Below are positions 29,333 to 60,824 of a stretch of 64,000 nucleotides of DNA, in pieces. Each line of letters opens with the position of its first letter. The stretch's first letter is position 1. The notes under the pieces were generated by a model. It did not search any database and was not told the DNA's origin. It saw only the letters and a list, made by a program, of their open reading frames with translations. Source of the DNA: an uncultured Verrucomicrobiae bacterium (lineage in GTDB: Bacteria; Verrucomicrobiota; Verrucomicrobiia; Chthoniobacterales; UBA10450); contig CAWGOG010000004.1 in the NCBI GenBank assembly GCA_963824205.1, positions 149,934-213,933 of the forward strand. The letters run 5' to 3'. Both the position numbers and the translations under genes were made by a program.

Positions 29333-30391
29333 CTAATCGAGGCCGATGCTGTGCCCTGCGGCTGCGGTATCCGTCATCACTTTGTATAAAGCCGGATGCT
29401 CGAAGACGTAAAAATTTAACAGCGTCGTCACCGCCGCGGCGATATCGCCGACTTCAGCGAGCCTGCCTTCCGGTCCGCCCTTCCAAAAATTCTTCGCGTC
29501 TTCCGCGATCTCTTTCTCAACGTCCTTAAAGCCGGCTTCCCCCTGTTCCTTCGTCAGGTGTTGGATCACTTTATCGAACTCGCCGCGATCCAGCCAGACG
29601 CCGTGACACTTCGGGCACCAGTCCAGCACGACCGACGATTTTCCGAAGACCACTGAGACCAGCTTGCCGCCGTCTTTTTTCGGACAGACACGCTTGCCCG
29701 GAAGAGCTGCCGTTTTCTCAAGGTTATCGACTTCCGAATTGAGCCAGTGCAGTTGCCCAATCCCAACCTTGTTCTTGAGTTTGCGCAGCTCGTCCTTGGA
29801 CAGCCACATGCCGTGACATTTCGGGCAGCCCTCGAACTTCATCGAAAGAATCGAATAGAGATCGAGTTTGGCGCCGCATGCCGGACAGTCCTCGTCCGTG
29901 CTTTCGAGATGTTTCGCTCCGCTGATTGGTTCTACTTCCACATTAAAATCCGTTTCGCTGCTTGGTTTCCTGATCCGCTTAAACCAGTAAGGCACATGGA
30001 CGCCATTAACAAAATCGGAAAATCCATGGCCCTCGACAGGCATGATCTTGACCAGCTCCTGATCAATCAGATTTAGCTCACCTCCATCAAGCCAAAATCC
30101 GCCGCAATTTCGGCAGTGATGGAGAATGATATCGGTATTTCCGAGGAAACGAACCGGCACCAACGCCGAGCCATCGCACCTCGGACAATCCTTCGCCTTG
30201 GCTTCGGCAATGGCCGTTTCCTCTTCCGAGCAAAACTCGATCGAGCCCTCGACCTTGAAAGCCATCTTGTCGAGCTCACCACGATCGAGCCAAAGGCTCC
30301 CGCATTGCTCGCAGACGTCATAGGAAAGCTCCGCGCTCCTGGTGATAACGTCGTAGTTCACCATCTCCGACTGGCAGTTTAAACAGTGCAT
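29333..30391 (-). CDS. Protein with four tandem zinc-ribbon (zf-TFIIB-like, CxxC...CxxC-G-WLD-GEL) domains
   Basis: The 352-aa ORF has four repeats, each with two CxxC pairs followed by G(S/F/M/V)WLD(R/G)GEL(D/N)K. The motif is seen directly as CLNCQ...CEQCGSLWLDRGELDKM, CPRC...CRNCGGFWLDGGELNLI, CPAC...CPKCHGMWLSKDELRKL and CPKK...CPKCHGVWLDRGEFDKV. Confidence 0.65.
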   Translation of the reverse strand: MHCLNCQSEMVNYDVITRSAELSYDVCEQCGSLWLDRGELDKMAFKVEGSIEFCSEEETAIAEAKAKDCPRCDGSALVPVRFLGNTDIILHHCRNCGGFWLDGGELNLIDQELVKIMPVEGHGFSDFVNGVHVPYWFKRIRKPSSETDFNVEVEPISGAKHLESTDEDCPACGAKLDLYSILSMKFEGCPKCHGMWLSKDELRKLKNKVGIGQLHWLNSEVDNLEKTAALPGKRVCPKKDGGKLVSVVFGKSSVVLDWCPKCHGVWLDRGEFDKVIQHLTKEQGEAGFKDVEKEIAEDAKNFWKGGPEGRLAEVGDIAAAVTTLLNFYVFEHPALYKVMTDTAAAGHSIGLD

Positions 30392-43112: not shown

Positions 43113-43801
43113 TCAATGGGTCGTGACATAGGGCGAAGACAAATGATCGATGCCATTGTTCGGCGCAGAGGGAGAGACAAAGACTTCGAAATCATATTGC
43201 AAGCCTACCACGTTGATCGACACAACCGAGGCCACGAGCAAGTCGGCGCTGACCTGAAGATTTTGGATGGTGCCGCTCGAAGGAACCGGGAAGGAAAAAC
43301 CGCCCGCTTCCGGAGGCGAAGTGGATTGGCCACTCCCATCGATGACTTCGGTGGTGTGATTTCCAAAACCTAACAAGACCGGCGCAGCCGAAACGACGGT
43401 CGCTCCCGAAAGGATGACGCCATTCGAGAAAACAATGAGTCCGGTGCCCTGTCCAGTCGCGCCAGTAGCCCGGCGCCCAGCGGCGGGGCCCGTTGCTCCA
43501 GTCGATCCGGTGGCGCCAGTTGCTCCGGCATTCCGCTCGGGCCGATGGGACCCGTGAGACCCGTCGCGCCAGTTGTTCCATTCGCGCCAGTCGGCCCGAT
43601 GGGTCCGGTAACTCCGGAGGGACCTCGCGCGCCGGTCGGCCCGACAGGACCGGTGGCACCGCGCGGTCCCGTAGCACCGGTGGCGCCGGTTGGTCCCGTC
43701 GCACCTGTCGGCGGAGGCATCTGTTTGGCGGAGCTCGCGCCCGGCGTCATTACGCCGAGGATAAAAAGTAACGAAAGCAGTCTAACTAATTGTAGTTTCA
43801 T
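43113..43801 (-). pseudogene. Collagen-like (GXY) secreted protein with BclA/C1q-like C-terminal domain, with a frameshift near 43510-43520
   Basis: ORF 43370-43801 encodes a signal peptide ([25 protein letters not shown]) and 20 or more GXY triplets, then degenerates. The third frame (ORF 43113-43376 and upstream) continues [15 protein letters not shown]...[39 protein letters not shown]...VSPSAPNNGIDHLSSPYVTTH. Its ATG overlaps the upstream gene's stop as ATGA. Confidence 0.55.
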
Positions 43802-44706
43802 AGGAGATTTCCTGGCCTCAAAGTTTCGATTCCGTCTCGACGTGGTGTCGTTAAGGACCCAGTGGCGCCAGTGATGCCAGTTGCCCCGGTAGGTCCAGTT
43901 GCGCCTTGGAATCGGATGATCACCAGATGTGCTGAGACGGGGTTTGTTCCGCCCGCCAATGGAGTCACGCCGAGAGCAACAGATTCTCCCGCAGGATTAC
44001 GAACCTGAAGAGTCGAATTGATTGTCGACGTCCTCACCAGGGCTGTTTCGACTATTTGGCTGGTCCCCGTAGCCCGTCCGACGACGGTCGAAGGGATTTC
44101 AAGAAACCCTGCGCCCGAATTGAGCGCCAAGACCAATTGACCCGGTTCAGTCACGCTCACCTGGAACGTGACTTGGTAAACACCGGGTTCAGCCAGAAGA
44201 AATGTGTCCGAGCCGGTTCTGACGATCAGACCTGTGCCGCTCGATTCGCCGTCGTTCGGAAATGCCACGGCCGACCCGGGCGAAACTGTGGCCGCATTAT
44301 CGGGCGGCATTAAAGCGAAGAAGTCAGCGTAGTCGGGCACACCGGAAATACCTGAAGCGCCCGTCGCTCCGACCGGTCCGGGCGTTCCTGTCGCTCCAGT
44401 CGCGCCGGTCACGCCGGTCGCTCCGATTGCGCCGGTCGATCCATTTAATCCGGGACTCCCGCTCGGGCCGGTGGCGCCAGTTGGTCCTTGTGCGCCTGTC
44501 GCTCCGGTCACACCACTCGCTCCACTGGGGCCTCGCGGACCCGTGGGTCCAGTCGGGCCGGTTGCACCTCGCGTGCCGGTTGCGCCCGTTGGCCCGGGTG
44601 TACCTCCAGGCGGAGTCGTTTGCGTCGCCGAGCTCACGCTCGCCGTCATCACGCCCACGACAAAAACCAACGAGAGTGCCTGCGCCAATTTGCTGTTCAA
44701 TTGCAT
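43798..44706 (-). CDS. Collagen-like (GXY) secreted protein with BclA/C1q-like C-terminal domain
   Basis: The internal Met of ORF 43798-44847 gives the signal peptide [27 protein letters not shown]. About 30 GXY triplets follow, then a globular C-terminal domain ([58 protein letters not shown]...LVIIRFQ). A short GXY tail ([17 protein letters not shown]) trails the domain. Confidence 0.7.
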
Positions 44707-45002
44707 AAAAATCCCTGAGTTACTGAATTGTTCCCCGACAAGATACACAGAATCCACAGCAAGTTTCGCCGCACTTTGAGGAAAAGGTTTGGCACACAGA
44801 GGGGATCGCTTTGATCGCGACCCCAAATGAGCGCTGTTTTGTTCCACTTTCCTTCAAAAAAGTGCGGTTTCCATTATTCCGCATCGTAAGCAGCTTACGA
44901 TATTTTCGATCCCGACTGATTTTGTTCTTTCTGATTTCTGTCCCGCTGCCTCGACCTGGCCTTCGGCATTGACGCTTCGGCTCTCTCTGCCAAAATCGCC
45001 GC

Positions 45003-50201: not shown

Positions 50202-51179
50202 GTGCTCGCCCTCATGAAGGTCCTCCGCATTCTCTCTCTTCATATTGCTCTGTTTTTTGTCACCGCCGGCATCAGCGCCGCAAAGCAGCAGCCGCCGCCG
50301 GGTGGACCAACGGGTCCGACCGGGGCAACGGGACCAACCGGGCCGGCCGGCAAGACGGGCGCAACCGGCCCCACTGGGCCGCGCGGTAATAGCGGCGCAA
50401 CCGGTGCGAGCGGGGCGAACGGAAACACTGGTGCAACCGGTCCGTCTGGTTCAAATGGTGCCCCCGGCCCAACAGGCACAACCGGAGCCACAGGTTCAAC
50501 GGGTGCAACAGGCGGAACCGGAATCACCGGTGCAACGGGCCCCTCTGGTTCGAATGGTGCCACCGGTCCCATCGGCACAACGGGTTCAACCGGTGCCACG
50601 GGTGCGACCGGAGCTGGTTCAACTGGTGCCACCGGCGCGACAGGGGCAACTGGCGAATCCGGCGCTGGCTCAATTATTCCTTTCGCCTCGGGCACGCCTG
50701 TCACGCTAACCACAACTCTCGGCGCGTTCACGAATCAGCTTGGTCTGATCGGGTTTGGCAACTCTAGCAGCGTCCTGCCCTCTGGCCCATTTATCGACCT
50801 CAGAGGTGGCCCCGGGATAAACACAAACTTCGCTTTCTCCGTGCCTCGCGACGGCACATTGACCTCGATTGCTGCCTATTTTAGCCTAACTAGCGCAGAG
50901 TCGTTAGTCGGAACCACGGTGACGGTGACCGCTCAACTTTATAGTTCTTCGACGCCCGATAACTTCTTCCTGCCGGTGCCAGGCGCCGCCGTAACACTAA
51001 CTCCGGCGCTGACGGGCGTCGTGGCCACCGGGACCACCAGCAACGGAATCACCACTGGCCTGTCGATCCCGGTCACAGCGCAAACGCGTTACCTCATGGT
51101 GTTTTCCATCACAAGCACGGGCGTTTCTCTGACAAACACCGTGCCCGGTTACGCCAGCGGCGGGATAACGATCGAGTAA
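50202..51179 (+). CDS. Collagen-like (GXY) secreted protein with BclA/C1q-like C-terminal domain
   Basis: The 325-aa ORF has a signal peptide ([23 protein letters not shown]). About 47 GXY triplets follow ([28 protein letters not shown]...), then a roughly 160-aa Thr/Ser-rich globular C-terminus ([14 protein letters not shown]...TVTAQLYSS...[11 protein letters not shown]). Confidence 0.75.
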
Positions 51180-60336: not shown

Positions 60337-60409
60337 GGGGGCATAGCTCAGTTGGTAGAGCGCCAGCTTTGCAAGCTGGATGTCAGGGGTTCGAATCCCC
60401 TTGCCTCCA
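60337..60409 (+). tRNA. tRNA-Ala (anticodon TGC), no encoded CCA
   Basis: GGGGGCATAGCTCAGTTGGTAGAGCGCCAGCTTTGCAAGCTGGATGTCAGGGGTTCGAATCCCCTTGCCTCCA folds as a cloverleaf. The G3:U70 wobble pair is the tRNA-Ala identity element. The anticodon loop is CTTTGCAAG. Confidence 0.9.
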
Positions 60410-60824
60410 ATGAAATGCTGAAATCCTGACAAGCTGAAAAGCTGAAATGGAATCGCGCGCTGGACGGAGATGAGAACTCGTTCGGCTGGTGGGGGCGCGA
60501 AGCGCAGGGTCGCAAAGCGACGCTCATTCTCCAGAGCCGGCGCGAAGCGCTGGATAATTCCCTTGCCTCCAATCTGAAATAGCGGAAACCGGACAAGCTG
60601 AGAAACGCTGAAATGCGAATCTCGCGCTAGAGCAGGAGATGAGAACTTGTTCGGCTGGTGGGGGCGCGAAGCGCAGGGTCGCAAAGCAACGGCTCATTCT
60701 CCAGAGCCGGCGCAAAGCGCTGGATAATCCCCTTGCCTCCAATGAAATGCTGAAATCCTGACAAGCTGAAAAGCTGAAATGGAATCGCGCTGGACGGAGA
60801 TGGGAACTTGTTCGACTTCATTCT
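60397..60824 (+). repeat. About 2.5 tandem copies of a ~170-bp unit, each starting with the last 12 nt of tRNA-Ala (ccccttgcctcca)
   Basis: Unit 1 spans 60397-60566, unit 2 spans 60567-60735 and partial unit 3 spans 60736-60824. Units 1 and 3 are nearly identical (ccccttgcctccaatgaaatgctgaaatcctgacaagctgaaaagctgaaatggaatcgcgc...). Unit 2 is diverged in its first 60 nt. All share the block ttcggctggtgggggcgcgaagcgcagggtcgcaaagcgacgctcattctccagagccggcgcgaagcgctggataat. Confidence 0.7.

Follow-up and report, generated by a model that had tools for sequence, protein, structure and literature searches.

Tandem RtT-like repeats that end in copies of the tRNA 3′ end lie behind tRNA-Ala in a verrucomicrobial genome

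The sole tRNA gene in the window (the whole 64,000-nt stretch of an uncultured soil Verrucomicrobiae bacterium that was analysed) is a tRNA-Ala(TGC) gene on the plus strand, on which ARAGORN and Rfam agree. The tRNA carries the G3:U70 pair, and the gene ends in ...CCCCTTGCCTCCA followed by ATG, so that CCA is not encoded. Directly 3′ of it and on the same strand (the gene ends at 60409 and the first unit starts at 60410) lies a tandem array, for which TRF reports a period of 169 nt, 2.6 copies and 87% matches over 60394-60814 (Table 1). The template of the repeated tag is the last 16 nt of the gene, 60394-60409, from A58 in the T-loop to the discriminator base A73. The 14-mer CCCTTGCCTCCAAT has three exact occurrences in the 64 kb, at 60398, 60560 and 60730, a count that no shuffled sequence reached, the shuffle mean being 0.43 with two mismatches permitted. 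The first-pass annotation was thus right that the 3′ end of tRNA-Ala is reiterated in the downstream units. The copies that it placed at 60567 and 60736 exist, but the 14-mer truly starts at 60560 and 60730, and identity to the tRNA end reaches still further 5′, to T-loop A58 (AATCCCC..., beginning at 60394, 60556 and 60726).

Table 1. Coordinates of the tRNA gene and of the parts of the array, as positions in the window.
Feature	Coordinates	Strand	Evidence or remark
tRNA-Ala(TGC)	60337..60409	+	ARAGORN; Rfam tRNA 76.7 bits; sequence
Unit 1 spacer, A-rich trailer with 8-nt periodic (G)CTGAAA(T) and CTGACA	60410..60465	+	TRF period 8; comparison with L081-L083 and L086
Unit 1 body, GGAGATGAGAAC...GCGCTGGAT	60466..60555	+	alignment A4; pair counts; CM R1 106.6 bits
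Body 1 helix GAAC/GTTC	60474-60483		
Body 1 helix CTGG with CCAG	60486-89 with 60531-34		
Body 1 helix GCGC-GAA-GCGC	60495-60505		
Body 1 helix AGC/GCT	60516-60524		
Body 1 helix CCGGCGC-GAA-GCGCTGG	60537-60553		
Tag 1, AATTCCCTTGCCTCCA, tRNA positions 58-73 with one C>T	60556..60571	+	sequence comparison
Unit 2 spacer, diverged, with indels relative to spacer 1	60572..60634	+	
Unit 2 body	60635..60725	+	CM R1 99.4 bits
Tag 2, AATCCCCTTGCCTCCA, exact copy of tRNA positions 58-73	60726..60741	+	
Unit 3 spacer, 96% identity to spacer 1	60742..60795	+	
Unit 3 body fragment, GGAGATGGGAACTTGTTCGACT, severed at the rearrangement junction	60796..60817	+	alignment with L081, L083, L086 and L087

The plan of a unit comprises an A-rich, locus-specific spacer of ~55-63 nt, in which a GCTGAAA motif recurs with a period of 8 nt, a GC-rich conserved body of ~90 nt and the 16-nt tag, the body being laid out as GGAGATGAGAAC ... 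GTTCGGCTGG ... GCGCGAAGCGC ... CCAGAGCC-GGCGCGAAGCGCTGG-AT. Unit 1 (60410-60571) is 162 nt long and unit 2 (60572-60741) 170 nt; unit 3 is a 73-nt stump (60742-60814) that ends at about 60812-60817. The overall identity of units 1 and 2 is 89.5%. The initial impression that unit 2 shares only a 3′ block with the others does not hold, given that its spacer, though diverged, can be aligned with spacer 1 (79% identity) and that the two bodies agree at 94%. The near-identity of units 1 and 3, which had also been pointed out, is borne out at 95-96% across the 73 nt left in unit 3, and the sequence made up of the tRNA end and unit 1 agrees base for base over 65 nt with that made up of tag 2 and unit 3. 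Since unit 1 resembles unit 3 and differs from unit 2, a block of two units was probably duplicated recently, unit 2 being presumably the older. Candidate spacer/tRNA-body complementarities (I1-I4) were discarded, because by a rough estimate about as many 10-of-12 matches are expected by chance in 650 nt.

Unit 3 breaks off inside GTTCGACT, and from ~60818 onward the sequence is that of the conserved upstream region of a C1 peptidase gene. The junction shows the microhomology T(T/G)CGAC, and related contigs have TTGCGACC at the corresponding point. Because the end of unit 3 coincides with the start of homology to the C1-peptidase upstream region of relatives, the half unit is, judging from these alignments, the scar of a rearrangement that ended within the array.

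Related loci came from several searches. In a genome scan with the pattern GCGCRAAGCGCTGGATAAT, 40 of 41 loci were chance matches within coding sequence (..REALDN..); the only real one, L029, in a Chthoniobacterales MAG, has at least two units on a contig that begins within the array, with the tRNA off the contig, and its tags match the 3′ end of Ser(CGA) genes known from other contigs. A metagenome scan with GTTCGRCTGGNGGGGNCGCNNNGCG likewise returned mostly chance matches in GC-rich genes (35 of 38 loci), along with three real loci: tRNA-Ser(GCT) followed by at least two units (L052), tRNA-Ser(GGA) followed by one unit and the beginning of the next (L073), and tRNA-Ser(CGA) followed by one unit without a tag (L071). 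Orthologous tRNA-Ala loci were reached via homologues of the flanking C1 peptidase, one match being named Chthoniobacterales by NCBI, which puts the window in that order as well; an exact-protein look-up with the peptidase of the window itself gave no match. Among these loci, L081 and L083 have one unit each, the body of L083 being strongly diverged, L082 has the spacer alone, with neither body nor tag, and L086 has a different 70-nt insert (the X segment) that ends in the tag and is followed by a spacer and a body broken by an unrelated repeat. The tRNA lies on the strand opposite to the peptidase in all four, and in L081, L086 and the P0001 contig tRNA and peptidase are set apart by a glycosyltransferase gene.

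Spacer 1 is retained behind the tRNA-Ala of relatives, the body-less L082 included, and the number of units at the orthologous tRNA-Ala ranges from none (L082) through one (L081 and L083) to 2.5 in the window. A common body, 60-90% identical across different tRNA loci and assemblies, is found behind tRNA-Ala (L081, L083 and L086) and behind three tRNA-Ser isoacceptors, namely GCT (L052), GGA (L073) and CGA (L071), and its unit immediately follows the tRNA in L052, L071, L073, L081 and L083, as in the window. The tag, wherever present, repeats the 3′ end of the tRNA next to it and is joined to the body at (A/C)(T)AATCC; seven unrelated tRNAs from other loci, taken as controls, all lack a downstream copy of their own 3′ end. 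The same architecture recurs in six independent assemblies (L029, L052, L073, L081, L083 and L086) and, as units 1 and 2 of the window moreover differ by 10%, an assembly artefact is unlikely to lie behind it, the copy number given for the window being that of the assembly as it stands. Repeats of this general kind have been familiar from E. coli, as rtT, since the late 1970s, and the layout seen here fits the tyrT/rtT locus better than it fits the scars of phage integration.

The bodies appear to be constrained at the level of structure. Ten of them (four Ala-type and six Ser-type, representing about eight independent lineages) were aligned (alignment A4) and served to build our own covariance model, R1. 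The alignment supports a GAAC/GTTC helix, which extends to TCGAAC/GTTCGA in the Ser type, a CTGG/CCAG helix that closes a three-way junction, an AGC/GCT helix that reaches 8 bp in L073, a separate GC hairpin that is also kept, and a 7-bp hairpin with a triloop immediately before the tag. Over the ten bodies, 94.3% of the cells in these five helices are paired, as against 25-37% after sliding of the partners, and double changes are seen in five pairs, a count reached in none of 500 shuffles; examples of compensatory change are CTGC/GCAG in L083, CCAACGC/GCGTTGG in L081 and CCCGAGC/GCTCGGG in L073. Moreover, the wobble pairs are of the kind that reads as G:U on the tRNA-sense strand. Single sequences do not fold more stably than their shuffled counterparts (z of -0.7 and -0.4). 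Because the sample comprises only about eight lineages and the single-sequence folds are unremarkable, we take the covariation as moderate evidence that the body is a folded RNA of the sense strand.

A further helix attracted attention in the fold of the window unit, in which UGGGGGC pairs with GCCUCCA, with a G:U at the 3:70 position, and RNAalifold likewise pairs GG.GGG with the tag. L083 has no such G-run, and the alternative CTGG/CCAG helix bears a compensatory change. This candidate mimic of an acceptor stem was set aside as a conserved element, as it does not appear to be conserved among the units; ARAGORN finds no tRNA-like gene within them.

These data bear on one alternative, namely that a tRNA trailer was neutrally duplicated in tandem and the units have no function, their resemblance to RtT being coincidental or their copy number an artefact of assembly. 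The small and variable number of copies, with none in one relative, and the unremarkable folding of single sequences are what such a process would leave. It does not, however, account for a body that remains 60-90% identical between tRNA loci and assemblies while undergoing compensatory changes, nor for the recurrence of the body-to-tag junction at A58 at independent loci, and the 10% difference between units 1 and 2 argues against a collapsed repeat. We therefore regard neutral duplication as very improbable.

Another alternative, site-specific integration, starts from the direct repeats themselves. The identity block of att sites in the T-loop class consists of direct repeats that run from the T-loop to a few bases beyond the end of the tRNA, and integrases that target the T-loop leave behind tags with just this starting point, which makes this alternative a legitimate one. 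Under it, a tyrosine integrase with its crossover in the T-loop would have inserted small elements serially or mobilised them in trans, each insertion leaving the displaced tRNA 3′ end as attR, and the array would be a stack of miniature integrative elements or att scars, decayed or non-autonomous (CIME-like). Each unit is indeed bounded by direct repeats from the T-loop onward. In the one-unit loci L081 and L073 the duplicated segment consists of the tag and 12-22 nt of trailer, and further short inserts with tags at their bounds are present in relatives: the X segment of L086, the first 13 bp of which are a perfect copy of the tag in inverted orientation, and, in L090, a tag of 11 nt at a distance of 62 nt behind the tRNA-Ser. 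Among relatives the tRNA flips its orientation, at the Ala locus as well as at the Ser(CGA) locus, which marks these loci as prone to recombination, and the ncRNA model set of Phage_Finder includes RtT (PMC12540744).

Beyond these repeats, the scar interpretation that the first-pass annotation had put forward finds no support at any other point tested. In line with its statement that the window has no integrase, none of the 20 scanned ORFs, which are of integrase-like size (165-562 aa; the window extends 3.2 kb downstream of the array), contains an integrase or recombinase domain, and the gene tables of the related loci list none either. The phage or plasmid source for which it proposed a search did not emerge, the unit having no match in scans of viral contigs or, by blastn, in GenBank phages and matching plasmids only through its low-complexity spacer. 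The putative elements would be just ~150 bp long, devoid of cargo and of any partner bearing attP. Furthermore, the number of different tags that go with the one conserved body is four or five, and integrases of several specificities would be needed to account for them; att arms, decaying ones included, are not expected to show compensatory changes or G:U pairs on the sense strand; and L082, if it were an empty site, still has the spacer behind its tRNA, on the wrong side for a B′ arm. Taken together, an origin of the array as integrative elements or att scars appears rather unlikely.

Another possibility is that the body is a selfish repeat at the DNA level, similar to REP/BIME sequences or MITEs and devoid of RNA function, that spreads as folded single-stranded DNA by means of a transposase acting in trans, with a preference for the 3′ flanks of tRNA genes. 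GC-rich palindromic hairpins would fold in single-stranded DNA too, and in enterobacteria there is overlap between BIMEs and rtT-like sequences (PMC2965389). That tRNA trailers attract repeats is also suggested by the second, unrelated repeat inserted into or beside the bodies of L086 and L088. Nevertheless, a covariance-model search of the 64 kb detects no copy of the body outside the array, the hairpin motif occurs in the window at chance level, and every copy found lies directly behind a tRNA, in the orientation of that tRNA and with its tag where a tag is present. Neither terminal inverted repeats nor short target duplications were found, and there is no transposase nearby. A purely selfish repeat is accordingly a decidedly improbable explanation.

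The remaining precedent, the RtT RNA of E. coli (Rfam RF00391), was examined at the tyrT-tyrV-rttR locus of E. coli K-12, in which one RtT unit lies between two tRNA-Tyr genes and a repeat of 178 bp is present 3.1 times after tyrV. Each of these units closes with AATCCTTCCCCCACCACCA, the segment of tRNA-Tyr from A58 through CCA; the rttR RNA of 171 nt is annotated with its end exactly at the CCA of the tag. In a scan against 4227 Rfam families (E-value mode), RtT is the sole family besides tRNA to match the units. The match to unit 2 of the window covers 60619-60744, is full-length, lies on the correct strand and ends on the tag, with 18.8 bits and an E-value of 1.7; the L083 unit, for which RtT is again the sole family, gives a full-length match on the correct strand that ends on the tag, with 24.2 bits and an E-value of 0.0099 (261 nt against all families). 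These scores of 18.8-24.2 bits stay below the RtT gathering cut-off of 45 bits, the E. coli units themselves scoring 133-137 bits, and the Ser-type units give no RtT match at E<=10. In the reverse direction, R1 assigns 14-16 bits to the E. coli units, in a partial and shifted alignment; these scores are comparable to those of pattern-selected chance loci, and homology to RtT by way of R1 is therefore unproven.

Two further candidates for a shared feature were set aside. The outer helix P1 of RtT, formed by the 5′ flank and the tag, has a duplex energy of -19.5 kcal/mol in E. coli; in the Chthoniobacterales units the values are -4 to -11, and a cognate tag gives no advantage over a non-cognate one, so that P1, being weak and non-specific, was rejected as a conserved feature of the units. 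Tpr-like ORFs in the window units would specify two basic peptides (35 and 40 aa), the frames of which diverge past residue 17, and that in L083 one of 14 aa; the Ser-type units show ATTCGAAC, without ATG. As the frame is not conserved, the Tpr-like peptide was likewise set aside as a conserved product. Given the scores below the cut-off, the lack of a Ser-type match, the shifted R1 alignment and the lack of conservation of P1, the array is not a demonstrable member of RF00391; the order and nature of its parts suggest, however, that it may work in the manner of RtT and may be a distant relative.

We thus favor, as a fairly probable explanation, an RtT-like array of tRNA-trailer RNAs that would be transcribed together with the tRNA and would gain and lose units through unequal recombination, with the tyrT-rtT repeats of E. 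coli as the closest precedent; the notion of a small-RNA array, which had first been raised as an alternative, is the reading that the evidence favors. Transcription from the tRNA-Ala promoter would read through the whole array, as we infer from the prediction of neither a promoter-like nor a terminator-like site, and in particular of no intrinsic terminator, on the plus strand between tRNA-Ala and the units. The enzymes that cut the tRNA 3′ end would presumably also set the ends of the trailer RNA at each tag, and structured RNAs of ~165 nt would be released, the 3′ ends of which would be the tag, ...GCCUCCA, as annotated for rttR of E. coli. Expansion and contraction of the array would proceed by unequal homologous recombination between units. 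What the body keeps is the three-way junction and the 7-bp GC hairpin, and what the tag supplies is the 3′ strand of both the T-stem and the acceptor stem, as found in the adjacent tRNA; by analogy with rtT, the released RNA may act on translation or on the amino-acid-starvation response through mimicry of the tRNA end. A site-specific or other special event may have created the first tag; the other short inserts of relatives that end in tags (the X segment of L086 and the 11-mer of L090) hint at a process at the DNA level that makes tags.

In L052, both tags include CCA, which the adjacent tRNA-Ser gene does not encode. An argument for retro-copying from such CCA ends was considered and dropped: the tags of L029 also include CCA, but the L089 and L091 genes encode it (the tRNA-Ser(CGA) genes of L071 and L090 do not), so that the L029 tags may simply mirror a CCA-encoding gene, and L052 is the sole remaining case. 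This case, together with the invariant body-tag junction at A58 and the invariant match of the tag to the host tRNA, points toward a bolder extension of the RtT-like array, in which the present arrays and the enterobacterial RtT form a single, phylum-spanning class of RNAs that mimic tRNA 3′ ends and are installed by a dedicated copying process. Recombination specific to the T-loop is one conceivable process of this kind, copying from mature tRNA another, and the released RNAs could serve as decoys for factors that recognize the ends of uncharged tRNAs. As a whole, we consider this extension improbable.

The array is a real feature, an RtT-like tRNA-trailer repeat in Verrucomicrobiota, a phylum distant from E. 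coli. The literature examined places RtT in Gammaproteobacteria, with no published report found outside that group: members of the Rfam family adjoin tRNA-Asn and tRNA-Lys genes in Actinobacillus, with RNAs seen on Northern blots (PMC4986893), and RtT is annotated in Thioalkalivibrio (PMC8092127); recent work still describes its mode of action as unknown (bioRxiv 10.1101/2024.07.17.603846). The occurrence in Verrucomicrobiota of the same design, a structured body with a tag copied from the host tRNA, in tandem and here with Ala and Ser tRNAs, suggests that the design is ancient or has been selected repeatedly, and is not an enterobacterial accident. Furthermore, the diverged sequences are a gain for the comparative study of the structure and function of this RNA. 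The boundaries of genomic islands are widely called from direct repeats of tRNA 3′ ends. A practical warning follows, in that arrays such as this one would be false positives in this procedure.

Among known systems, tRNA att sites and CIMEs resemble the array in that direct repeats of the tRNA 3′ end flank segments and arrays can arise by tandem accretion; they differ from the units described here, which are ~150 bp long, carry no cargo, have no integrase or attP partner in the sequences scanned and combine an RNA-like conserved body with various tags. REP and BIME sequences share the GC-rich palindromic hairpins in intergenic DNA, but the units, in the sequence examined, are not dispersed and lie behind tRNAs only, in one orientation. 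Small RNAs from tRNA trailers and spacers, such as the 3′ETS of leuZ in E. coli, are stable RNAs that tRNA processing releases from the tRNA precursor, as is predicted here; such RNAs are, in contrast, single, short, unstructured base-pairing sponges that are not tandem and have no copy of the tRNA 3′ end. With respect to RtT, the differences lie in the host and the tRNA (Verrucomicrobiota with Ala or Ser tRNAs as against Gammaproteobacteria with Tyr), in the other register of the internal helices, in the lack of conservation of P1 and of the peptide frame and in the absence of an added CCA from the window tags. The likeness extends to tandem units of ~170-180 nt (162 and 170 nt in the window) directly behind a tRNA, with tags of the 3′ end of that tRNA from A58 in the T-loop onward (A58-A73 in the window); to a GC hairpin and TAAT before the tag (GCGCGAAGCGCTGGATAATCC in the window and GCGCGCAGCGCTGAGTAATCC in E. 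coli); to the order of the motifs GGATGAGAA and GTTCGACT, two hairpins and GCGC-GNA-GCGC; to a candidate ORF, initiated by ATGAGAA, that would encode a very basic peptide; and to a variable copy number, RtT copies having been gained and lost between strains of Erwinia (PMC7542023).

Tags, that is, copies of an adjacent tRNA 3′ end (in the window from T-loop A58 to A73), also terminate segments other than the RtT-like units. Directly after the tRNA-Ala end of L086, an orthologous locus from a related contig, lies a perfect 13-bp inverted copy of that end (CTTGCCTCCAAAT-ctatg-ATTTGGAGGCAAG), followed by a 70-nt segment whose end consists of GCGTAAT and a full tag. This insert is distinct from the RtT-like unit, yet its A58 junction is identical. 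Moreover, in L090 an 11-nt copy of the tRNA-Ser(CGA) 3′ end, CACCCCTTCCG, occurs 58 nt downstream of the tRNA without any RtT-like body, and the tRNA gene itself does not encode CCA. The tRNA-Ser(CGA) genes of L089 and L091, whose orientation with respect to nrdJ is the reverse of that in L090, encode CCA, and no tag was found behind them. In L052, both tags of the tRNA-Ser(GCT) array bear CCA (..CACCG-CCA), whereas the adjacent tRNA gene ends in ..CACCG-TTTG; furthermore, the spacer behind these tags bears no relation to that behind the tRNA.

Coordinates of features in the window and related contigs
Feature	Location	Strand	Remark
Tag-ended insert other than RtT-like unit	L086, original coordinates about 372-454	minus	directly 3′ of tRNA-Ala
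tRNA-Ser(CGA) and downstream 11-nt tag	L090:2057-2128		
tRNA-Ser(GCT) array with two tags	L052, original coordinates 13-352	minus	
Second repeat family	L086, about 220-290	minus	
Second repeat family	L088:14-330		
Second repeat family	L081	minus	downstream of RtT-like unit
Second repeat family	L082:2530-2850		
Leader boxes ATCTTGTGT / TTGTGTGTCC	L029:500-660, L089:470-600, L090:2340-2480, L091:2340-2480		
8-nt periodic motif TGAAATGC / GCTGAAA	window 60411-60449 and 60743-60781		4.9 copies, in spacer
Predicted ORF from conserved ATGAGAAC	window 60472-60579		35 aa (MRTRSAGGGAKRRVAKRR...)
Predicted ORF from conserved ATGAGAAC	window 60641-60763		40 aa (MRTCSAGGGAKRRVAKQR...)
Collagen triple-helix repeat protein	window 43798-44847	-	
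Collagen triple-helix repeat protein	window 50202-51179	+	
Protein with four TFIIB-type zinc-ribbon repeats	window 29333-30391	-	352 aa

A second repeat family (CCGGGTAGCGCACTCGTCTCGAGTGCTGG ... GGAGCGCAGGCTGCCAGCCTGCA ...), unrelated to the RtT-like units, adjoins tRNA-Ala trailers in related contigs; it splits the RtT-like body in L086 and L088 directly 3′ of GATGAGAA, and a search of the 64-kb window detected no copy. The gene for B12-dependent ribonucleotide reductase retains repeated boxes in its leader; these resemble the NrdR operator consensus and are putative NrdR operators.

Among the other proteins encoded in the window, one of the two with collagen repeats also possesses a BclA C-terminal domain; such surface-fibre cargo looks unusual for a Verrucomicrobium.

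Relatives keep the periodic spacer motif behind tRNA-Ala. The match of about 90% between a 40-nt stretch of the window spacer and Pseudomonas plasmids is most likely an effect of low complexity.

The reading frame of the predicted ORFs is kept neither between units nor in relatives. Both predicted peptides are very basic, and the ORFs resemble the 'protamine-like' Tpr ORF of E. coli, which starts at an equivalent ATGAGAAG.
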